A DNA stretch of 64,000 bases. Source: Bacteroidales bacterium (GTDB lineage: Bacteria; Bacteroidota; Bacteroidia; Bacteroidales; Muribaculaceae). Under the pieces are notes generated by a model, which was given only the letters and a program-made list of their open reading frames with translations, ran no database searches and had not been told where the DNA came from. The stretch lies in assembly GCA_014800685.1 (NCBI GenBank), contig JAAVFQ010000015.1:15767-79766 (forward strand), given 5' to 3'. The position numbers were made by a program, and so were the translations under genes. Numbering within the stretch: position 1 is the first letter of the stretch; every line of letters starts with the position of its first letter. Below, one piece after another: positions 54,202 to 64,000 of this stretch.

Positions 54202-54233
54202 CAAAGTTACTAAATTCTTCATACAATAGCAAA
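54202..54233 (-). promoter_or_regulatory. Promoter for glnS
   Basis: TTTG (54233-54230) - 20 nt - TAACTTTG (54209-54202). Confidence 0.8.
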
Positions 54234-54244
54234 TTTAAGATAGG

Positions 54245-55066
54245 CTAATCGCCACTCTCTTCGGCTAGTTTTCTATACTCCGCGCTCTTTGTTGAGTTCT
54301 TTATCTGGCCACACTTGCCATTCTCAAGAATATCTGCCATAAGGAGACAGCAGCTGGAATTACCGGCATCAGCATGTTCTTTCAGATAATTGTATGCTTT
54401 TATGCTTCCTGCTTCGGCGGCCTTCAGCAAATAGTCAAGCCCTTTTTCTTCATTTTTTTCTGTCACGACACCTTCGAAACAATAGCGCCCCACAGTGAAG
54501 AGAGAGTATCTATGACCCTGCTGAGCTGCCATCTCGGAATATTTATAAGATTTTTCAGGATCTGCAGCCAACCCATATTCCTTCATGCCATTTTCGTAGA
54601 AAAATCCAAGATTTGCTTGAGCTGTGACACACCCTTTTTCAGCCGATTTTGTCAGATAATCAAGTCCTTTAGTGACATTTCTTGCGATTCCTCCCTCTGC
54701 ATCGAGATAAATTATGCCGAGACTGCACATTGCATCCACATTATTCATCCCCTCTGCAATCTGATAATAACCGATGGCGCGAGCCACATCGATCTTCTCC
54801 CAATACTCTCCCTTGCGATAAATATCGCCGAGCAGTAAGGCTGCCGATGAGTTATATGTAGCTATTTTATCCAGGCATTTAATCGCCTTCTTAGTATCGG
54901 AACTTAAAATGGGTAACAGCTTCTCGACATACTCGTAGGAAGACAATCGGGCTGTCTCGTCCGACATGGGTATTTCACCCAATACGTTTGAGCGGACGCC
55001 TATGGCTCCGACCAGGCTGAGTTGCAATAGGATAATTGCACAAATCAATCGTCTGCCTATTACCAT
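54245..55066 (-). CDS. Secreted Sel1-like repeat protein
   Basis: Hydrophobic signal; repeats such as AMCSLGIIY..GIARNVTKGLDYLTKSAEKG and AQANLGFFYENG..AAQQG; 7-nt overlap with the upstream kinase. Confidence 0.9.
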   Translation of the reverse strand: MVIGRRLICAIILLQLSLVGAIGVRSNVLGEIPMSDETARLSSYEYVEKLLPILSSDTKKAIKCLDKIATYNSSAALLLGDIYRKGEYWEKIDVARAIGYYQIAEGMNNVDAMCSLGIIYLDAEGGIARNVTKGLDYLTKSAEKGCVTAQANLGFFYENGMKEYGLAADPEKSYKYSEMAAQQGHRYSLFTVGRYCFEGVVTEKNEEKGLDYLLKAAEAGSIKAYNYLKEHADAGNSSCCLLMADILENGKCGQIKNSTKSAEYRKLAEESGD

Positions 55067-56925
55067 GGTATCTCCTTTCCTGATTTTTCATACCATTTGC
55101 CACCCTCTTTGTAGCCCTCTCCATTCTTGAATTTACCCACATAGTAGGAGCCATCCTCCTTTATGGTATAGCGTCCGTTTTCATACTCGTTATTGAGCCA
55201 TGTACCCTCAAAGGTATCTCCGTTGGGAAGAGTGTAATGAGATTCTCCGGTCATGTTTCCATCTTTCCATTCACCATCATACACAGAGCCGTTAGGGAAT
55301 TTTGCCACGCCTTTTCCATTAGGGATATTTTCTGGATTAACCTCTCCGGTATACTTAACTTCACCAAGAACAGTCTTATAGTCCATATCCTCTACCGAGA
55401 CGGGCAGCGAGATTTCTGTCTGCTCCATGGCCTCTTTTTTCTCATCAGAAGAGTCTCCCCCCGAAATAAAGAATACTCCCGCACCGACAATTATCAGACC
55501 GATGACAAGCCCGATAATTATGGGCAAGTTACTCTTCTTTGCAGGTACCTCTATCTGAATATCCGGAATATTCTTCTCAACATCCTTTTGAGAAGAATAA
55601 TTCTCTTTGGGAGTCTGCATGACCTGTTCAGATTCAGATGGAGAGGTCAGCTTAACTTCTTTCCGAGCATTTTTATTCTCAGCCTTTCTTCCGGATTCCG
55701 CCTTTTTCTTTGAATCATTCTTCTCCTTTGGAGAGGGGATACCTTCCACAATATTATCGGAAATAGAGGATGCTTTTTCCGCAGCAGGCTGCACACTCTT
55801 TTTCACTGGAGAGGGGTGTGCATCATCCGGACCGATTTTCACCTCCGGACTCTCTTCTTCTTGCGGTATTTCAGTCTCTGCGACAGCTCCATTCTCTATA
55901 TCTGCATTCTCGCTATTCACCGGAGTAGATTCTTCCACACTTACCTCCGGATTTGATTCTGCCGGAATAGCCGATACAACTTCAACCACTTGAGCCTGCG
56001 GCTTTCCTTCTATTATAACTTCCTCGCTGTCATCGTTTTTTATAGCGAGAAGCATCTCTTGCATAGTCTGATAACGATTGCGTATCAGTGCAGACATAGC
56101 CTTGATAACGATTGCCTTCAGCCGGTCAGAGACTCCCGCTGCACTGAGTTTTTCCGCAGGATCCTCTATGCCATTAAGTATCAACGAGGCTTCAGGCGGA
56201 CGCAGGCCGGTAAGCATTTTAAACATTGTGGCTCCAAGCGCGTAAACATCCATTGTAACAGGGATGCCATTCCCCACACGATAATTCGATTGTTCCACAG
56301 GGGCATATCCCGGAGTTCCCGCTCCAATTTTAGTGCTTGCCTCAGGCTCTCCGCCCTCATCGAAATGCTTTGACAGTCCGAAGTCGATAAGCACAGGATT
56401 CATGTCTTCAGTCAGCATGACATTACTTGGCTTAATGTCAAGATGAAGCATTCCTTTACTATGAAGGGCACTCAATGCTGAAGCCAACTTGATGCTCAGG
56501 CTGATAACTTCATTTTCAGGCAGCCTTCCTCTCTTTTTAATATAATCGTCAAGGGAGCCCCCCTCTATGTATTGCATAGCATAATATACGGTGCCGTTAG
56601 CCTCAAAGACTTCCATCACATTTATGATGTTTTCGTGATTTACTTCTCCAAGATTGAGCGCTTCTCTGACAAATTTCTTCCGATAATCCTGCACCATTCC
56701 CATCTTATTCCCACTTGTGACCTGCGAGCCTTCACGCCCATTTATGTCACTCATGTAGAATTCCTTGAGGGCGACTTTGGAAGTAATGGCACCGAGTTCG
56801 CCCTGAAGAGTAATGGTAGCTTGATAGGTGATACCGAAAGAACCACGCCCAAGTACTTTTTTTATAGTGTAAGAATAGCGACTTCCCTGAAGAACAGTCC
56901 CGGGAGCCAATATGTCATTATTCAT
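55060..56925 (-). CDS. Hanks-type Ser/Thr kinase - acidic linker - TM - MORN repeats
   Basis: LGRGSFG, VALKE, HLDIKPSN, DFG, GTPGYAPVEQ, DVYALG; TM IIIGLVIGLIIVGAGVFFI; YDGEWKDG, FEGTWLNN and YVGKFKNG MORN repeats. Confidence 0.93.
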   Translation of the reverse strand: MNNDILAPGTVLQGSRYSYTIKKVLGRGSFGITYQATITLQGELGAITSKVALKEFYMSDINGREGSQVTSGNKMGMVQDYRKKFVREALNLGEVNHENIINVMEVFEANGTVYYAMQYIEGGSLDDYIKKRGRLPENEVISLSIKLASALSALHSKGMLHLDIKPSNVMLTEDMNPVLIDFGLSKHFDEGGEPEASTKIGAGTPGYAPVEQSNYRVGNGIPVTMDVYALGATMFKMLTGLRPPEASLILNGIEDPAEKLSAAGVSDRLKAIVIKAMSALIRNRYQTMQEMLLAIKNDDSEEVIIEGKPQAQVVEVVSAIPAESNPEVSVEESTPVNSENADIENGAVAETEIPQEEESPEVKIGPDDAHPSPVKKSVQPAAEKASSISDNIVEGIPSPKEKNDSKKKAESGRKAENKNARKEVKLTSPSESEQVMQTPKENYSSQKDVEKNIPDIQIEVPAKKSNLPIIIGLVIGLIIVGAGVFFISGGDSSDEKKEAMEQTEISLPVSVEDMDYKTVLGEVKYTGEVNPENIPNGKGVAKFPNGSVYDGEWKDGNMTGESHYTLPNGDTFEGTWLNNEYENGRYTIKEDGSYYVGKFKNGEGYKEGGKWYEKSGKEIPW

Positions 56926-56992
56926 TCTAAATATTACTTAATTTTACTTTTTTACTCTCCACTCATTCTGAGACTTGTGGAAACCTCATTAC

Positions 56993-57547
56993 TCATTTCC
57001 CGGACACGAATACTATTTCTTTAATTTGCTGGTCAGGGCCGGCGTATGTGCCACGGAATGAGCCGTCACTCATTTTATTAAGCTCAATCCTGTCTGAAGT
57101 GGCTCTGCCTCTTATGCTGATATGATTGCCGGAGGAGGTGCCTTTCATTTTTATAGAGGCTATACGCGTGTTCCATACGCCTTTCACATTCTCTCCCTCT
57201 ATCTCCAGATGAAGAGTGGTCTTGTGGCCGTTCTCCACAGATTCAACGAGCACAAGAGAAGAGGGAAGGGATGAGGGGATAACCTCAGCTGTGGTATTTA
57301 TTTCAGATTCAACTGCCTCGGATGCAGAAGAATTGCTATATCGCCAATACAGATATCCACATAGCGTAACCATTATTAATCCTGCCACGGCTAAAATTAT
57401 CACGATAGCCGTTGATTTCTTACGGCTTTTAACCACTTTCGGCTCAAGATCTAATGCTGACTGAAAATCTTCTTTGACCATTGAGTCAGACATCTCATCT
57501 TTTTGCGCAGGAAGATAATCTCTATCATTATCATTATTTATACTCAT
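56993..57547 (-). CDS. Single-pass membrane protein with small C-terminal beta domain, function unknown
   Basis: Acidic N-terminus, KSRKK then TM AIVIILAVAGLIMVTLCGYLYW, S/T-rich linker. Confidence 0.75.
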   Translation of the reverse strand: MSINNDNDRDYLPAQKDEMSDSMVKEDFQSALDLEPKVVKSRKKSTAIVIILAVAGLIMVTLCGYLYWRYSNSSASEAVESEINTTAEVIPSSLPSSLVLVESVENGHKTTLHLEIEGENVKGVWNTRIASIKMKGTSSGNHISIRGRATSDRIELNKMSDGSFRGTYAGPDQQIKEIVFVSGK

Positions 57548-57634
57548 ATCCTGTTATTTTGAAGCAAGTTTACTATCAAAGACATATAGAAGAATCCCAT
57601 CGGAATATTTCCAATCTGATTGAGACAGCTCCAA

Positions 57635-59002
57635 TCAGTCTGCTTCCAGAACTACACATTCCACCGGAGTACGGAAAAGTTCTCTTATCCAACCCGTATA
57701 GAAATCAGTGGCTATCATCACTCCTATGATAGCTATGATTAATCCAATCAGCAAGAAGGCCAAAGTGCGATTCTTTTTTGAAGTGTCCTTTCCTGTCACG
57801 TTATAACTCTGAGCAGGAAACGCTGGCATTTCTTCTACTCGCGTTCTTTCATCTGACTGATAACCTGCAGCAGGCATTATATCTAACGATGTATTCTCAA
57901 GATCAACTGTAGTTCTCTCATCTTGAAATCCTCCTGATGCTGAAACCACCTCAAGACTGGTGGCCTCGTCTTCCTGATAGTCTATGGCTGTAGCCTCCTC
58001 ATTTATCATTTCCGGAATCGGCTGAGAGGGCATCACAGTCTCTACCGGAATAACTTCTGCAGACTCTGCAACCGGTTCCGGCTTATCACTCTCTCCATCA
58101 AGAGCTATCTTTATTGCTTTCTCCAAATGTGCAGCTGACTGATATCTGTCTTTCCACAGAGGCTGCATAGCTTTAGTCACTATCTCTATCGTGGGCCTAC
58201 TGACTCCCGCAGCTGCCAATTCATCTTCAGAAAAACCATAATTAAATATTTCCGGCGCGGAAGGGGGCACTTTGCCGGTCAGCATATTATATAGTGTAGC
58301 GCCAAGGGCGTAAATATCCATTGTCTTGGGCACCCCGAATCCGGCATGATAAGATGTCTGCTCCATAGGCACATATCCGGACTCTCCATTACCGAGACCC
58401 ACGATTGTGTCAGGCTCACCTTTTTCATCAAAATGCTTGGCTAATCCAAAATCAATGAGTACAGGCACCTTTCCGCTATTCATGAGAATATTATCGGGTC
58501 TGACGTCAAGATGAAGCAGTCCGTGAGAATGCAGTTCATCAAGCGCTCCGGCCAGCATTATTGTAATCTCCAGCGCCTCCTTTTCCGGGATGCGCCCTTT
58601 AGTCTTGATAATATCGGCCAAGCTCTCTCCACTAATATATGACATGGAATAGTAAGCAGTATCATTAGCTTCAAATCCCTCATATACGTTTATGAGATTG
58701 TTGTGTGAGATGGAGTGCAGATTCTGAGCCTCTCTTTTAAACTTGCGGTAAAGCTGGTCAAAGAGTTCTTTATTGCTGAAAACGGAGACAGTAGAGTCTT
58801 TTCGATCATTGCATTCAGCCACAAATAGCTCTTTGAGTGCGACCTGCATATTTGTTCTCTCACCGGCCTCGTTAATGATGTCGGCGAGATAAGTAATTCC
58901 GTATGATCCAAGTCCAAGAACCTTCAGTATGCGATATCTGAAATTTACACCCTTGAGAACGGAACCCTCCTTGAGGGCTTCTTTTATGTTGTTTTTTATC
59001 AT
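57635..59002 (-). CDS. Hanks-type protein kinase with C-terminal TM anchor (variant catalytic loop)
   Basis: LGLGSYG, VALKE, HLDVRPDN, DFG, GESGYVPMEQ, DIYALG; TM LAFLLIGLIIAIIGVMIA; short tail. Confidence 0.92.
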   Translation of the reverse strand: MIKNNIKEALKEGSVLKGVNFRYRILKVLGLGSYGITYLADIINEAGERTNMQVALKELFVAECNDRKDSTVSVFSNKELFDQLYRKFKREAQNLHSISHNNLINVYEGFEANDTAYYSMSYISGESLADIIKTKGRIPEKEALEITIMLAGALDELHSHGLLHLDVRPDNILMNSGKVPVLIDFGLAKHFDEKGEPDTIVGLGNGESGYVPMEQTSYHAGFGVPKTMDIYALGATLYNMLTGKVPPSAPEIFNYGFSEDELAAAGVSRPTIEIVTKAMQPLWKDRYQSAAHLEKAIKIALDGESDKPEPVAESAEVIPVETVMPSQPIPEMINEEATAIDYQEDEATSLEVVSASGGFQDERTTVDLENTSLDIMPAAGYQSDERTRVEEMPAFPAQSYNVTGKDTSKKNRTLAFLLIGLIIAIIGVMIATDFYTGWIRELFRTPVECVVLEAD

Positions 59003-59057
59003 TGCTATCTATGCTGCTCTTTATTTGACCATTAATTTATCTTCGAGCCTCCGAGAA

Positions 59058-60686
59058 TTATTCTCCTGTATTTTCCGAGTTTTCTGAAGCGGACTGCGGG
59101 GCTACCGGTTCTCGTGATTCCACGTTAGTCGGTGAGACTTCCTTTGCGGATGTTTTTAGCTCTTCGGAATTCTGATTCTTATGCGCATTTTCATCTTTAT
59201 GAGATTCCTCCAAATTCTCCTTTTTCTCTTCTCTGCGGACGCGTGAATCATTCTCCGGAGCTTTTGATTCTTCCGGAACTATAGTGGCAGCCGAAGGTGT
59301 CATGGAGGATGAATCCTGCGCTGAGGGGATTACGATTTCGGTAGTATCGCCCAACTCTTCCCGATTTTCTATCGTTTCCTCAGAGCGGGAAAGCAGGAAG
59401 AAATATAATATCAAACCACACGCTATAATAAGAATGGCAGCCATAACGTAAACGGCCACATGGAGATGTCTTTTTTTCTGACTATTACTGATTCTTTCCT
59501 CCTCAAGAACTTCACTTTCGAGAACATAATCATCTGCAGAGTTGTCCGAAGCAGTATCAAAGACTATCTTTTCCGGCTTATTTTCAGTGGGCGATAAGGA
59601 AGTATCAGCCTCGGTTGCCGGAGGCGTAATCACATTTTGAGGATCCGGAATACTCCTTTCTTCTGTCATATTTTCCGAAGTATTCTCTACTTTCTCCACT
59701 ATGGCAGAGCTTGAGACGACCGGAGGCTTAACACTTTCAGTTATAGGGATGACGTCTGATTTTTCCGTGACAGAAGAGCTATCATGTTGCTTTTCATCGA
59801 CTTCCACATCGACGGTATTATTCGCTTTTTGATGGGGAAGAGAATAAAGTTGCCTCATAATGGCATCCTGCATCTCCATTAAGGCATGAAATCTCTTCGT
59901 TACGGAAGGAGACATGGCTTTCTCTATAATAGAAATTGTCTCGCCACTGACTCCGGCTGCTTTCAGAGGCCCTGCCGGGAAACCGAAATTAAGAATTTTA
60001 GCAGCATCAGCAGGAGTTTCGCCGGTGAGCATCGCATACATTACGGCGCCGAGACCATATTCGTCTATTGCGACGCCACTCCCCATGCCTTTTCTGTAGT
60101 ATGCTCTCTCGATAGATGAATATCCGGGAGTCAGGAAAAGGGGAGAGGCGCTTCCATCTTCCTTAGTATCTCCGACAACGAATCCAAAGCCGGCTATAAC
60201 CGGTATGTTATCTTTGGTGAGGATGATATTATCGGGTGTAACGTCAAGCAGAGAAATACCTCTTGAATGAAGATAGTCAAGAGAACTGCAAAGAGCAGTT
60301 GCAATTCTCAGTGTATCTGATTCTGAAAATCGGCCTCTTTCTCTTATGCATTCAGCAAGAGTATTACCCTCGATATAGTCAGAAACGTAAAATATCACAC
60401 CGTTCTCCTCAAACGATTCCTTAATCGTCTGAATATTGGCGTTTCTCAGATTTAATAGAGCAAAGATCTGACGGACATAATCGTCATGAATATTAGAATC
60501 ACCCTCTCGGGTCAGGACAAACTCCTGGAGAGCCACGAATTCACCGGTGCTTTCATCGCTGATAGTAAGCACTTCTGCGAGATAAACATTAGTATGCGGC
60601 GACTTTCTCAATAAGCGGATTATCCTGTAATTTTTGCCGCGGCCCTTCACTATCATTCCGTCGGCGAGCCGAATATTGTTTGTCAT
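59058..60686 (-). CDS. Membrane-anchored pseudokinase (Hanks fold, catalytic motifs degenerate)
   Basis: No Gly loop (RKSPHT), VALQE, LLDVTPDN, AGFG; retains GYSSIE, DEYGLG, MLTGETP; TM near residue 410. Confidence 0.85.
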   Translation of the reverse strand: MTNNIRLADGMIVKGRGKNYRIIRLLRKSPHTNVYLAEVLTISDESTGEFVALQEFVLTREGDSNIHDDYVRQIFALLNLRNANIQTIKESFEENGVIFYVSDYIEGNTLAECIRERGRFSESDTLRIATALCSSLDYLHSRGISLLDVTPDNIILTKDNIPVIAGFGFVVGDTKEDGSASPLFLTPGYSSIERAYYRKGMGSGVAIDEYGLGAVMYAMLTGETPADAAKILNFGFPAGPLKAAGVSGETISIIEKAMSPSVTKRFHALMEMQDAIMRQLYSLPHQKANNTVDVEVDEKQHDSSSVTEKSDVIPITESVKPPVVSSSAIVEKVENTSENMTEERSIPDPQNVITPPATEADTSLSPTENKPEKIVFDTASDNSADDYVLESEVLEEERISNSQKKRHLHVAVYVMAAILIIACGLILYFFLLSRSEETIENREELGDTTEIVIPSAQDSSSMTPSAATIVPEESKAPENDSRVRREEKKENLEESHKDENAHKNQNSEELKTSAKEVSPTNVESREPVAPQSASENSENTGE

Positions 60687-60756
60687 TTATAATTGCATTC
60701 TAAAAAATTAAACGATATTATTCCGGACTAAACATCCTAAATAGCATCACAGTAAT

Positions 60757-62217
60757 TTATTCCGGTGTCTTATCATTTCCGGTGGATTTTCCGGAGTGCT
60801 CGGGCGCCGGAGCCTGCGATGTACTTTTTTGCGGTGCTCCGGCACGATTGGGTTGCGTTAGCACTCCCTCATCTTGAGGAGCCTTGATAGAGCCCGGAGT
60901 GTTTTTTGCAGGTACCTTCTGAGCCTTATCCTGTTTACTCTTTTTAGAAAGAGCTGCAGAAGACCTCTCAGAGGATTTTTCTTTACTCAATTCTTCAGGG
61001 ATGGGAGAAATACTTTCACCTCCTTCGTCTAAAACGGATACCTCTGACTCAGTAGTTTTAACAACATCTACCTCTTCCTCCTCATATACCCGCTTTCCGG
61101 TATCTTTCCCTCTGCCTTCTCCATTAATCTTTTCAATGAAAAGATAAGCGATTACCATCAGCAAGAGAGCAAGTATTGCGCTTAGAATATATATGAGAAC
61201 TTTGGATTTTCTCTTTTTTTTGACAGGCAGAGGAGGAGCCATATTTATCGAAGAGGAGTATGCAGGTTCGCTCTTCGACTTAATTGGATTTTCTGACGTC
61301 CTTCCCTTATGATTGACTTCAGAGACTACCTGTGAGGGGGCTGATCGGCGTGAAGCCAGCTTATCCTTGTCTATGAGAAGGGGACATTCCTTAGAATCGA
61401 CCTCTAAGGGCGTGGCCGGTCTTCCTTCTATAGCTACAACTTCTATGATGAAGGCTGTATGATTGTCTCTATTTTCAATCGTAGCCATTCGAAGAGCTTG
61501 CACCTTCTTGTCAATATCGTCTACGGCCGGGGAGTCTGAGAAGAAAAACTTCAGGTTTTCATCATCGGCCTCTTCAAGCATTCCATCTGTACAAAGATAG
61601 AAATAATCTCCCGGCATAATATTAGAAGAGTGGTGCACATCCGCCATTGAACGTCTCTCATCATTAGGCTGCATAGCTCTTGTGATAACGTTTTTCTGAG
61701 GAAACATCTTTGCTTCTTCCTCAGTAAGCTGACCGACTTTGATTAGGTCGTTTACCAGAGAATGGTCCTCGCTTTTAAAGATAATCTTTGTCTCGGCAGG
61801 AGTGTTTCCGGGGCGAAACTGATATATACGGCTATCTCCAAGGTGAGCAGCAGTATAGCCTGCATCATGAAATTTCAGGAACGTCATAGTGGTTCCCATT
61901 TTTTTTGTAGCACCGGAGTCTTTTGCATCGAGAGCCTTGTAAGCCTCGCTAATGGCATGCTGCAGGATTAAATCTGAGAAACTACCCTCAGGGGAGGATT
62001 CCGTCTCAACGACTTTGCCCATGGTCTCAACCACCGTTTCGCTGGCCACTTCTCCTTTATCATGTCCTCCCATGCCATCACACAGCACAAATACCCGACA
62101 GCTATCCGAGATTGCATCCATTGAGGGATACATGCTATCTTCCTGGTGCGGATGACCACTTTCATCGGTTCGTTTACCAAACTCTATGATGCCTCGAACT
62201 CTTAGTTTAAATTTCAT
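60757..62217 (-). CDS. PP2C/PPM Ser/Thr phosphatase with TM anchor and low-complexity C-tail
   Basis: QEDS, LCDGMGGH, HLGDSR, ITRA, LCTDG, DNHT; KKKRKSK before the TM. Confidence 0.93.
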   Translation of the reverse strand: MKFKLRVRGIIEFGKRTDESGHPHQEDSMYPSMDAISDSCRVFVLCDGMGGHDKGEVASETVVETMGKVVETESSPEGSFSDLILQHAISEAYKALDAKDSGATKKMGTTMTFLKFHDAGYTAAHLGDSRIYQFRPGNTPAETKIIFKSEDHSLVNDLIKVGQLTEEEAKMFPQKNVITRAMQPNDERRSMADVHHSSNIMPGDYFYLCTDGMLEEADDENLKFFFSDSPAVDDIDKKVQALRMATIENRDNHTAFIIEVVAIEGRPATPLEVDSKECPLLIDKDKLASRRSAPSQVVSEVNHKGRTSENPIKSKSEPAYSSSINMAPPLPVKKKRKSKVLIYILSAILALLLMVIAYLFIEKINGEGRGKDTGKRVYEEEEVDVVKTTESEVSVLDEGGESISPIPEELSKEKSSERSSAALSKKSKQDKAQKVPAKNTPGSIKAPQDEGVLTQPNRAGAPQKSTSQAPAPEHSGKSTGNDKTPE

Positions 62218-62260
62218 GACGTTTTTCTTAGATTGTCGCTTTATCCAATACCAGATTACT

Positions 62261-62890
62261 TCAATTTACAATAAGAATCAGAGAGGCATCCGGCAATGAA
62301 ATCTGCATGCCGGGAATGATAGGCATTCTGCATCCAAAATACAAACGATTCCCGTTAATATAAGTTTCGTTGCAATTAGGCTTACATAGTGATGCTGTGA
62401 ACTGAAGACCACCGTAGGCATCAGTATTAACATCAATCAGGAGATGCTCCCTGCTCATTTTAAGACTTCCTCCGGTATTAATCTTTACATTTGCGGATGA
62501 GCTGGCACTATATCTGCCTATAATATTGCTACCGATTAAAAGCGGGTAACGTTCCTGGGTTCCTTGATTAAGAAGCATGGCATAGTGTCCCTGCGAGGGT
62601 TGCCCGTAAGGGCGGGGGGGACGCTGGGCGGGAATTCCTTGTCTCGGAGGGACACCGGAGGAAGCCGGAGGTGCTGAAGAGTACCCCGGATAATTACCGT
62701 TGAAGTCGGGAGTTTTATGAGGAGGAGGAGTCTGCACTCTGCCGGGGACAGCCACATCCTTCATCTTAATAAAGGGGTAGGTGTTATGGCATACAGGACA
62801 AGTGACAGTGGTATTCTGAATACCGGCCTGATTTCTTATGGTCAGTATCGCCCCGCAGGTTGGACATTTTTTTTGTATAAATTCATTCAT
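62261..62890 (-). CDS. Zinc-ribbon - Pro-rich linker - FHA domain protein
   Basis: CPTC...CPVC; FHA motifs IGR, SREH, NETYING; likely start 62890. Confidence 0.88.
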   Translation of the reverse strand: MNEFIQKKCPTCGAILTIRNQAGIQNTTVTCPVCHNTYPFIKMKDVAVPGRVQTPPPHKTPDFNGNYPGYSSAPPASSGVPPRQGIPAQRPPRPYGQPSQGHYAMLLNQGTQERYPLLIGSNIIGRYSASSSANVKINTGGSLKMSREHLLIDVNTDAYGGLQFTASLCKPNCNETYINGNRLYFGCRMPIIPGMQISLPDASLILIVN

Positions 62891-62944
62891 AATTATAGTC
62901 TTTACAGGGATAGTCAAGTTATTAATATATCTCTCTTACATTTC

Positions 62945-62984
62945 TGCTCTTCAACAAGTCATTTTGGCTGAACTTTGAAGAGCA
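62945..62984. other. Intergenic stem-loop within the signalling cluster
   Basis: TGCTCTTCAA / TTGAAGAGCA 10-bp arms with inner pairing; no U-tract on the coding (minus) strand. Confidence 0.6.
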
Positions 62985-63026
62985 AATTAATTTATCAACT
63001 TGCTTATCCATTCTCTTTATTAATTA

Positions 63027-63503
63027 TTAGTAATAGACTCCTTTTTCCCCGTTAAGGATACTCTGTAAAGATTTCAGTCTGCTTTCTTTTTCTTTTTTGG
63101 AAAGAATCAATGCTACATATTCTGATCTCTTTTCTGAATATTCTCTTTCTAAGGACTTGTCCTTTCGCTCCGAGTTTGAGAGCCGTTTTTCAAGACTAAG
63201 CAAGTCTGATGATCGGATTTCAATTTTTATTTCAATAGTCTTCAAATGCTCGGATAGTAGGGCAGCTTCCTTTTCAATGCATTTCAAAGAGTCTGCCGAA
63301 AGGCCCTCTAATCCAATACTCTTTGGGGCTGTCTCATCTTTTCCGGCTCCCTTCATGATACCTGTTCGTTTCATGGACAGCATCCTCTCAGCTGCACGCT
63401 GCTTCTGCACTCTCTCCGGGGGCGCTTGACTTTCGGAAGCTCGAGAGCCAATAGAAATCACCAGGCATAACAATGTAGTTATTATTTTTTCTGACGTTTT
63501 CAT
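63027..63503 (-). CDS. Secreted coiled-coil protein, function unknown
   Basis: Signal-like N-terminus (KIITTLLCLVISIGSRA), heptad-rich charged C-terminal half. Confidence 0.7.
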   Translation of the reverse strand: MKTSEKIITTLLCLVISIGSRASESQAPPERVQKQRAAERMLSMKRTGIMKGAGKDETAPKSIGLEGLSADSLKCIEKEAALLSEHLKTIEIKIEIRSSDLLSLEKRLSNSERKDKSLEREYSEKRSEYVALILSKKEKESRLKSLQSILNGEKGVYY

Positions 63504-63526
63504 CTCATATTCACTGTTTGTTCCGA

Positions 63527-64000
63527 TTAATTCTCGCTCTCATCAAGCAAAATATTATCTTCTTTTACTTGGTCTGCATTCCCATTATATTTCTGATATT
63601 CCTTCAGGGCATTGCGATATTTTCTTAAGACATCTTTTTTCACATATACCTTGAGATTTGGACAATGAGTCTTGAGAGTCCACATCGGCTTGTCTGTATT
63701 CATGTTTTCATACAAGACGTTAGCTGAAAAAGGGCCCTCAAGTAAAACCTGTGTAACCGGCGAATTAAGCAACAAATCAGGCTTCAGAATTATTCCTGCA
63801 GGAGCTATCACTCTATCAATTTTACAATCTTTCTGCCACACTCCCTCGGCGATGTCTTCCAGTTTTTCCGACAACTTAAGATCGCCACATTTCGAACTTG
63901 GTATCAGAAGCAGGCGTTTACTATCGGCCGAATAAAGACAACCATCATAACACTCATATTTCTTTTCCTCATCGGAAGACTTCATGCTGATGTTTTGCAG
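63527..64000 (-). CDS. C-terminal part of a BspA-like leucine-rich-repeat (LRR_5) protein, start outside the window
   Basis: Frame open to the edge (LQNISMKS...); YECYDGCLYSADSKRLLLIP resembles the Y.S.DGVLYSKD...LI.YP spacer of LRR_5 proteins; LKVYVKKDVLRKY C-terminal cap. Confidence 0.6.
   Translation of the reverse strand: MQNISMKSSDEEKKYECYDGCLYSADSKRLLLIPSSKCGDLKLSEKLEDIAEGVWQKDCKIDRVIAPAGIILKPDLLLNSPVTQVLLEGPFSANVLYENMNTDKPMWTLKTHCPNLKVYVKKDVLRKYRNALKEYQKYNGNADQVKEDNILLDESEN

Follow-up and report, generated by a model that had tools for sequence, protein, structure and literature searches.

Signalling in gut Bacteroidales is usually described in terms of two-component, hybrid two-component and extracytoplasmic function (ECF) systems. 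A stretch of 64,000 nucleotides from the Bacteroidales bacterium (Muribaculaceae) assembly GCA_014800685.1 (contig JAAVFQ010000015.1, positions 15,767 to 79,766 of the forward strand), analysed here as a whole and called the window, carries at one end a group of genes for eukaryotic-like protein kinases and their likely partners. What kind of system do these genes form, and how does it relate to those already described? An earlier note, made by a model from the letters of this DNA, had seen in them a trans-envelope system with writers, an eraser and a reader of phosphate marks. According to our analysis, the genes probably form a membrane-spanning Ser/Thr phospho-signalling operon, which would be a reduced, lineage-specific member of a large family in Bacteroidota. 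A trans-envelope Ser/Thr relay is reasonably supported as the mechanism. No functional study of a cluster like this one in Bacteroidota came up in a literature search, in line with the note's remark that none was known from gut Bacteroidales.

The predicted writers, eraser and reader

Nine open reading frames (ORFs) on the minus strand, confirmed from the ORF list, occupy window positions 54245-64000 and run in the order LRR_5 protein, coiled-coil protein, Zn-ribbon-FHA (ZnR-FHA) protein, PP2C with a transmembrane (TM) segment, pseudokinase with TM, kinase with TM, 184-aa TM protein, kinase with TM and four MORN repeats, and Sel1 protein. The gaps between them range from -7 to 136 bp, so the picture of nine co-oriented and tightly packed genes was correct.

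The Pkinase profile of Pfam matched the products of 59058-60686 (E 1e-23), 57635-59002 (E 9e-32) and 55060-56925 (E 2e-35), all on the minus strand. The last two keep the catalytic Lys, the Asp and Asn of the catalytic loop and the Asp of DFG, and their sequences thus agree with the proposal of two Hanks kinases as writers. The kinase of 57635-59002, called K3-type below, is a 455-aa protein (catalytic loop HLDVRPDN) with a juxtamembrane linker, a TM segment at aa 413-431 and about 24 outer residues. In the MORN kinase of 55060-56925, an acidic/basic linker of 170 aa and a TM segment (aa 469-487) are followed by four outer MORN repeats, counted by eye; Pfam scored MORN in this C-terminus at 23.8 bits against a cut-off of 22.5. 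Both enzymes are of the non-RD type, as were all 86 aligned intact kinases (84 from relatives plus these two), which have HLD, HYD or HFD. Arg replaces the catalytic-loop Lys (HLDVRPxN) in 3/3 K3-type orthologues (window 57635-59002; L091 8936-10318; L090 4833-6170; L numbers denote other contigs and loci), an unusual and conserved exchange in enzymes whose other catalytic residues are intact.

The product of 59058-60686 consists of a kinase-like domain (aa 1-290), an acidic linker, a TM segment (aa 414-432) and a low-complexity outer tail of 100 aa. Its motifs read RKSPHT, VALQ, VRQI, LLDVTPDN and GFG against the canonical GxGxxG, VAxK, xxE, HxDxKxxN and DFG: the G-loop is absent, the VAIK Lys and the alpha-C Glu are both replaced by Gln, and DFG has become GFG. 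The description of this protein as a dead kinase was therefore accurate. Within 5.8e9 sequences it had one close protein cluster (96% identity), and the next match, 32% identical, covered only the kinase domain; this nearest non-self match (P0002) was rejected as an unrelated kinase adjoining a NusG-like gene. The four catalytic residues are kept in 84/84 full-length kinases of other loci, with three divergent ones intact by eye, and L091_K1, the positional counterpart of the pseudokinase, is catalytically intact as well. A pseudokinase as a regular feature of the family was ruled out, because the kinases of relatives all appear to be intact, L091_K1 included; judged by these comparisons, the window protein is a lineage-specific novelty, recently derived from an intact kinase.

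The phosphatase gene (60757-62217, minus strand) codes for a PP2C part (aa 1-265) followed by a linker, a basic patch, a TM segment (aa 340-358) and a low-complexity outer tail of 125 aa. Pfam assigned PP2C_2 with E 6e-11, and the best solved relative was Stp1 (2PK0, E 2e-23), with PppA (6JKV) and PstP also matched. The metal-binding motifs D47-G-M-G-G, G127-D-S-R, D211-G and D251-N are invariant in 22 homologues, which together with these matches supports the assignment of the protein as the eraser.

Judged by its relatives, the gene of the predicted phosphothreonine (pThr) reader most likely starts at ATG 62890 (62261-62890, minus strand; 209 aa) and not at TTG 62917, the start of the mechanical ORF. 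When 25 homologues were aligned, C9, C31, C34, G125, R126, S146 and N174 were invariant and R147 and H149 nearly so; the ZnR-FHA protein keeps the pThr-binding residues G-R, S-R-x-H and N-x-T, and the CxxC...CxxC Zn ribbon. The profile of these homologues matched the FHA domain of Mycobacterium tuberculosis FhaA (Rv0020c), the best solved relative, with E 8e-7. Because of the conserved residues and this match, the FHA call is firm at family level and the proposal of a Zn-FHA reader holds.

A common layout had been claimed for five of the proteins, and hydropathy and charge analysis bore it out as far as a cytoplasmic domain, an acidic linker, a single TM segment and an outer part are concerned. 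The basic patch that was said to precede the TM segment is present in 4/5 and missing from the MORN kinase (net charge 0).

The substrate of the circuit may also be visible. In the K3-type kinase, the juxtamembrane stretch at aa 336-390 (57833-57997, minus strand) holds five repeats of the form [DE]-x-T-x-hydrophobic-[DEQN] within 55 residues (EATAID, EATSLE, ERTTVD, ENTSLD and ERTRVE), which are candidate phospho-acceptor and FHA-docking sites; in other window ORFs the motif occurs at a background of 0.39 per 1000 aa. The linkers of L091_K3 and L090_K3 carry it as well, and many ZnR-FHA proteins have it in their linker and C-terminal tail; in the Ca-loop TM protein family u320 of relatives it occurs at 2.85 per 1000 aa, and 55/75 copies lie within the first 80 aa, in the cytoplasmic N-tails. 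An acidic residue at +3 of pThr is a classical preference of FHA domains, as in Rad53 FHA1. We infer that these ExT repeats may be what the kinases write and the FHA proteins read, and that the linker of the K3-type kinase may take the place of a lost u320 substrate in the window copy. Most ZnR-FHA proteins end in a conserved tail (...IPD-E-x-G-T-D/E-Φ) that resembles the candidate motif and could, by analogy, act as a self-binding switch like that of GarA; the window protein is without the C-terminal ExT tail of its relatives.

A family in Bacteroidota and its reduced copy in the window

A scan of GTDB, with one genome per species, revealed the core arrangement of ZnR-FHA, PP2C-TM and non-RD Hanks kinases in at least 574 species genomes, mostly of Bacteroidales. 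The window has the same elements on the same strand and in that order, including the C-terminal TM segment of the PP2C, and so falls within the family. The PP2C-TM protein by itself gave more than 6,000 matches, the top 120 all below E 1e-90; the few named members came from Prevotella or Prevotellaceae metagenome-assembled genomes (MAGs), and some clusters held 400 to 1,800 member sequences. The best GTDB match of the PP2C was 59% identical among the matches listed, therefore the window's own species is not among the GTDB representatives.

ORFs were called and iterated profile searches were run on 80 of these loci, 77 with a separate PP2C and three with PP2C-kinase fusions. Among the 77, the ZnR-FHA gene lies directly upstream of that for PP2C in 60, and 55 carry one kinase or more, with a range of 0 to 8 per locus; the kinase, the phosphatase and the reader thus co-occur in relatives. 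Three further families are common, namely the u320 protein (60/77), an FHA protein with a TM segment and a Zn finger (FHA-TM, 49/77) and a Peptidase_C14 protein (44/77), and an LRR_5 gene followed by one for a small exported coiled-coil protein was found in 7/77. The fusions are single ORFs of 858-893 aa in Prevotella MAGs (L060 9914-12595, L068 1101-3764 and L072 784-3360) and constitute further evidence that both enzymes work together.

The u320 proteins have an acidic cytoplasmic N-tail, one TM segment, a conserved outer motif (SFxEAFAAAR..GGVFEWxG, with the invariant pattern SFxEAFAAAR..VGxGGxFxWxG) and EF-hand-like DxDxDG loops. They make up an undescribed family with no Pfam match above threshold (L088 7610-8572, L091 1743-3143 and about 80 other ORFs in L007-L088), and many loci have two paralogues. 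The C14 proteins carry a signal peptide and conserved SGHG and DACxSG motifs, on account of which they are predicted to be exported, active caspase-like peptidases.

Beyond these components, de novo clustering of all ORFs from 83 loci gave no further family conserved in the flanks. The unit is therefore self-contained, as the earlier note had proposed for the window copy, and placed in varying neighbourhoods. The outer tails of the kinases vary too: among 77 tails, Pfam identified FGE-sulfatase-like domains in 10, MORN in 10, Lcl_C in 8 and Sel1 in 5 and, more rarely, WG repeats in 4, TPR in 3, TonB_C in 2 and LRR_5 in 1. Explicit kinase-TM-Sel1 fusions are present in L008 and L037. Clusters of the Bacteroidales type were also seen in bins labelled 'Candidatus Methanomethylophilaceae archaeon' (L018, CAVBFD010000065.1) and 'Flexilinea sp.' (L053, CAVJZJ010000001.1), with PP2C proteins 52% and 35% identical to that of the window; for the archaeal bin, whose contig is 5.6 kb long, mis-binning is more likely than real transfer.

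The place of the window copy in this family can be seen by comparison with L091, the orthologous locus, which ends in a glnS fragment 94% identical to the glnS of the window. Its genes are arranged as LRR, s165, u466 (u320-like), C14, FHA, PP2C, K1 to K4, K5, which also carries MORN, Sel1 and glnS. Identities to the window proteins are 35% for LRR, 50% for FHA, 57% for PP2C, 31% over the full length for the pseudokinase and K1, 55% for the K3-type kinase and K3, 55% over the full length for the MORN kinase and K5, and 30% for Sel1. Compared to L091, the window lineage is without the u320-like gene, the C14 gene, K2 and the kinase domain of K4, and profiles of the FHA-TM, Ca-loop and C14 families matched nothing in the 64-kb window. 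On sequence comparison, the window copy is thus a reduced, lineage-specific derivative of a larger family. The earlier proposal of a trans-envelope system is sustained by the TM topology and by the kinase/PP2C/FHA circuit, but it missed that the copy is a reduced one. In a scan of metagenome contigs anchored on glnS, 0/80 loci (glnS 64-86% identical) had any component of the cluster upstream; the mre genes were missing there too, so general synteny is broken and the result speaks for neither an insertion nor a rearrangement.

The K4-like gene of the window is that of the 184-aa protein (56993-57547, minus strand), in which a short cytoplasmic N-tail and a TM segment (aa 48-66) precede an outer domain rich in beta structure. 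Its alignments to L091_K4 (aa 354-514, E 8e-19) and to L090_K5 (aa 366-505) cover only the linker, TM segment and outer domain of a fourth kinase. An exhaustive search of 1.84e9 representative proteins gave five relatives. One of them, P0323, is a standalone form of 219 aa from another lineage, 48% identical, whose N-tail has four tandem copies of E-x-T-Q/R-Y-D/I; the existence of this homologue speaks for a stable kinase-less gene rather than a recent remnant. A single-sequence AlphaFold2 (AF2) model, of low confidence at a mean predicted local distance difference test (pLDDT) score of 56, showed a TM helix and eight strands, and for this low-confidence model Foldseek returned no significant match (best E 0.05, small beta-barrels).

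The losses might mean that the window copy is a decaying remnant without function. Measured against L091, the C14 peptidase, the Ca-loop protein and one kinase are gone, and a second kinase has been stripped of its kinase domain; its first kinase has lost the catalytic residues and its FHA protein the C-terminal ExT tail. However, several independent assemblies and a sister strain (L093), which has the same gene order, show every ORF intact, and selection can be measured between the two strains. By Nei-Gojobori counting of the window against L093, the ratio of non-synonymous to synonymous changes (pN/pS) was 0.10-0.35 (binomial p <=0.002) for the LRR, FHA, PP2C, pseudokinase, K3-type kinase and Sel1 genes; the 184-aa protein and the MORN kinase had too few substitutions. 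Single values were 0.19 for LRR, 0.11 for FHA, 0.14 for the catalytic part of PP2C, 0.10 for the 455-aa kinase and 0.13 for Sel1. In the pseudokinase, the kinase-like domain gave 0.11 (binomial p 5e-5) and the linker and tail 0.77. The pseudokinase domain is therefore under purifying selection and the protein is maintained. With these ratios, and with the standalone homologue of the 184-aa protein in another lineage, decay is a very improbable explanation.

The same pair of strains showed a mosaic. Between L001, the contig that extends the window (see below), and L093, identity reaches 99.7-100% in mreC-rodA, the MORN kinase and glnS, and only 94-98% from the small genes after rodA through the K3-type kinase and again in Sel1. 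The diverged tracts (L001 6100-15700 and 18400-19260; window about 57800-64000 and 54245-55100) point to imported recombination tracts, the first of which includes a CN-hydrolase gene and so is not specific to the cluster.

The rapid turnover of gene content, with 0 to 8 kinases per locus and the C14, Ca-loop and LRR genes variably present, would also fit an anti-phage, abortive-infection or inter-bacterial conflict system, in which the kinases would sense invasion or attack at the envelope, the phospho-signal of full versions would release a caspase-like protease, and the window copy would have lost its effector. The cluster proteins are only 30-57% identical to those of L091 despite a glnS identity of 94%, the neighbourhood varies without a conserved flank, a caspase-like peptidase with a conserved active site is encoded in 44/77 loci, and the kinase domains score well against the models of the defence kinases PD-T4-6, mad6 and MkoA. 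Yet the PADLOC v2 matches were to generic kinase and caspase domains only, without any match at the level of a system, and the FHA, PP2C, LRR, Sel1, 184-aa TM, coiled-coil, FHA-TM and Ca-loop proteins matched nothing in PADLOC. The inspected flanks hold housekeeping or ordinary regulatory genes and no defence islands. Moreover, the caspase-like protein has a signal peptide, and is thus exported and no cytoplasmic suicide effector, and the window copy is without any recognisable effector at all. A defence role is accordingly unlikely, if the least unlikely of the rivals, and a phospho-signalling operon is still preferred. Variable sensor domains and fast turnover suggest that whatever the family watches at the cell surface changes quickly; host, diet, phage and competitors are examples.

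Limits of the cluster and its neighbours

The first gene of the cluster, for an exported BspA-type LRR_5 protein, runs over the window edge (63527-64000, minus strand, on to 64576), and the window holds 157 C-terminal codons of its 349 aa. The ENA contig L001 is a valid extension here, as it shares 10,974 nt with the window without a mismatch. The full gene lies at L001 8928-9977, with only its 5' half beyond the window; its product has an N-terminal signal-like hydrophobic segment and is matched by Pfam LRR_5, whereas Pfam saw no LRR in the 157 codons alone, so that the assignment made from the window held only once the gene was complete. LRR_5 genes stand in the same position in seven GTDB loci, in L088 and in L091.

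It is followed by the gene of CC158 (63027-63503, minus strand), a 158-aa exported coiled-coil protein with no match in Pfam or NCBIfam, for which an AF2 model predicts an N-terminal hydrophobic helix (aa 3-20) and long helices at aa 70-109 and 116-150 with pLDDT >93. In relatives, the position of CC158 after LRR_5 is taken by a small exported coiled-coil protein. Homology between the two was rejected (profile score 1.5 bits against up to 10.4 for shuffles; BLASTP E 10), and the likeness is a positional analogy only. At the other end, the Sel1-repeat protein (54245-55066, minus strand; Pfam Sel1 E 2e-23) has an N-terminal hydrophobic segment and is predicted to be exported; the start of its gene overlaps the stop of the MORN-kinase gene by 7 bp.

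No terminator-like sites and no Bacteroides-type -7 motif TAnnTTTG were found in the internal gaps of the cluster. The motif occurs twice in the spacer 5' of the LRR gene, and twice more at the downstream boundary (54202-54237, minus strand), 80 and 108 bp before glnS, where the two copies are candidates for glnS's own promoter. Tight packing and promoter or terminator motifs that lie only outside the cluster fit one transcription unit from LRR to Sel1. A sigma-70 promoter scan was dropped, as its matches were no more frequent than in shuffles, and an Rfam scan of the whole window gave no match.

The earlier note expected the cluster to continue past the window edge, with its output gene perhaps upstream. 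The rest of the LRR gene does lie there, but nothing of the cluster beyond it. In L001, a 720-bp AT-rich spacer without any called ORF lies 5' of the LRR gene. A perfect 19-bp inverted repeat with a T-rich run (L001 8211-8258, outside the window) follows the stop codon of a CN-hydrolase gene, at the start of the spacer, and is likely the terminator that closes that gene. Beyond the CN-hydrolase gene come two small genes and then rodA, mrdA, mreD, mreC and mreB, all on the same strand; the complete mreB-mreC-mreD-mrdA-rodA set (L001 1-6131) ends 2.8 kb upstream of the cluster. The expectation of an upstream output gene thus failed, and no secretion locus is present there.

This leaves very little room for an accessory role of the cluster in the regulation of a secretion system, on the model of the PpkA-PppA-Fha1 pathway in the type VI secretion system (T6SS). 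Both have the triad of writer, eraser and reader, the PP2C has PppA among its solved relatives, and the exported accessory proteins could play the role of TagQRST. However, Pfam maps showed no secretion genes in the 10 kb upstream and about 1 kb downstream covered by L001 or in the 3.5 kb after Sel1 in L093, and none in the relatives L087, L088 and L091; no such family is conserved in the 83 loci either. We regard this as the remotest of the explanations considered.

The neighbours raise another alternative, in which the cluster regulates the cell wall or elongasome by acting on the upstream mreBCD-mrdA-rodA genes or their proteins, like the actinobacterial FhaA-FhaB-PstP-RodA-PbpA-PknA-PknB operon. 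The genes mreB, mreC, mreD, mrdA and rodA are indeed close by, upstream and on the same strand, FhaA of that operon is the nearest solved relative of the FHA family, and both systems have a TM-anchored PP2C, TM kinases and, in relatives of the window copy, two FHA proteins of which one is membrane-anchored. Nonetheless, mre/rodA adjacency was found in 0/83 related loci (in one of them, a weak RodA-like ORF lies on the opposite strand, 5 kb downstream), no mre/rodA family is conserved in those loci, and in the window lineage three unrelated genes, the hairpin terminator and the 720-bp spacer separate rodA from the cluster. PASTA was detected by Pfam neither in the window kinases nor in the 77 kinase tails of the family. 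Control of the cell wall is therefore an improbable role, and a phospho-signalling operon independent of these neighbours is favoured.

The proposed relay and its likeness to known systems

In the favoured reading of a membrane-spanning phospho-signalling operon, the relay would start with the two kinases, which by their sequences have one TM segment each and a cytoplasmic kinase domain, one of them displaying MORN repeats on the outer side. Ligand binding or sensing would fall to the exported LRR_5, coiled-coil and Sel1 proteins, acting together with the outer domains. Because MORN, Sel1 and LRR_5 are found fused to related kinases, and because the Sel1 gene overlaps that of the MORN kinase, the separate Sel1 and LRR_5 proteins probably work with the kinases outside the cytoplasmic membrane. 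Once activated, the kinases would phosphorylate Thr in E-x-T-x-hydrophobic-(D/E) repeats, here chiefly those in the juxtamembrane linker of the K3-type kinase and, in most relatives, those on the cytoplasmic tails of the Ca-loop TM protein. The ZnR-FHA protein, in which the binding residues are present, would dock on the pThr sites, and the TM-anchored PP2C, with its catalytic motifs, would erase the marks and reset the system. The pseudokinase, presumably unable to bind ATP/Mg and kept by selection, is probably a non-catalytic partner such as a scaffold, an allosteric regulator or a substrate. As most relatives encode an exported caspase-like peptidase, proteolysis in the envelope is suggested as part of the output of the family; the window copy does not have this peptidase.

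Several observations weigh against this reading of the window copy. The FHA domain is below threshold in the single protein (Pfam FHA in 62261-62917: 18.7 bits against a cut-off of 20.7). Three components of most relatives, namely FHA-TM, the Ca-loop protein and C14, are missing, and no recognisable effector or output gene was found in the copy, so its circuit may differ from the norm of the family or be partly disabled. The phospho-motif was defined post hoc, and its enrichment statistics share this limit. Finally, the locus was found in only four gut-metagenome DNA runs and in no RNA runs, so that co-transcription is deduced from packing only.

A wider reading, which we put forward tentatively and hold to be rather less likely than its opposite, is that the family represents a widespread and undescribed form of envelope signalling. 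Arrays of non-RD receptor kinases with swappable outer sensors (MORN, Sel1, FGE-sulfatase-like, Lcl_C, WG repeats, TonB_C and others) would put a common E-x-pT-x-hydrophobic-(D/E) code onto membrane-anchored tails in the cytoplasm; this code would be read by two FHA proteins and erased by the TM-anchored PP2C, and the whole would be coupled to an exported caspase-like protease. If true, this would be a bacterial counterpart of surveillance signalling by receptor kinases and pseudokinases, and the window copy would be its natural 'minimal' form, with a kinase's own juxtamembrane repeats in place of the substrate protein and a selected pseudokinase as a further member of the complex. To the signalling repertoire of gut Bacteroidales the family adds a Ser/Thr phospho-relay, one common in uncultured gut and rumen bacteria that are Prevotella-like; annotation gives its proteins no name beyond 'PP2C domain-containing protein'. 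The window copy offers a simple experimental start, with two kinases, a pseudokinase, a reader, an eraser and a candidate phospho-motif.

Among known systems, the actinobacterial operon named above corresponds to Rv0014c-Rv0020c in M. tuberculosis. It resembles the cluster in its FHA reader(s), in a single-pass TM PP2C with an outer tail and in single-pass TM receptor kinases; PstP and the actinobacterial kinases have been described (PMC12088040). In contrast, the outer parts of the window proteins are MORN, Sel1, LRR or nothing, without PASTA, and the window kinases score 141-151 bits against NCBIfam PknB_PASTA_kin, with a cut-off of 450. The kinases of the cluster family are all non-RD, and its FHA protein begins with a Zn ribbon; the window operon does not include rodA and pbp genes, whose adjacency is not conserved. 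The window also adds a pseudokinase and exported proteins, and its relatives a caspase-like peptidase and a Ca-loop TM protein.

The threonine phosphorylation pathway of the H1-T6SS of Pseudomonas aeruginosa consists of PpkA, PppA, Fha1 and TagQRST, and its exported accessory proteins feed a periplasmic or outer-membrane signal to the kinase. The cluster shares with it a TM kinase with a periplasmic domain, a PP2C eraser, an FHA reader and exported accessory proteins. It differs in that no T6SS genes lie near the window cluster or its relatives, the window PP2C is membrane-anchored, and several kinases and a pseudokinase are present, with no vWA domain on the kinase.

The closest study at the level of an operon is that of Deinococcus radiodurans DRA0331-DRA0334, which code for a vWA protein, a Ser/Thr protein kinase, an FHA protein and an FHA-PP2C protein (bioRxiv 10.64898/2026.01.23.701218). 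In that module, FHA docking modulates phosphorylation by the kinase and the PP2C opposes it; the module has been linked to radiation and DNA-damage kinases, with no envelope role described (bioRxiv 10.64898/2026.01.23.701218). The kinase, FHA and PP2C 'push-pull' arrangement is common to both, whereas in Deinococcus the PP2C has an FHA domain of its own, the module includes a vWA partner, and a kinase array, a pseudokinase and exported modules are all missing.

The vWA-centred 'ternary' conflict systems (Kaur et al. 2020) were considered and set aside, as PP2C is mentioned there only for an actinobacterial GTPase-centred system of kinase, PP2C and vWA, unlike the cluster. With the PADLOC defence kinases PD-T4-6, MADS mad6 and Mokosh MkoA, which the window kinases match with E 1e-34 to 1e-54, the likeness is in the Hanks fold and concerns the kinase domain only, the other components of those systems being absent in the window. 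In its components and their arrangement, the cluster is a variant of the known kinase/PP2C/FHA modules.

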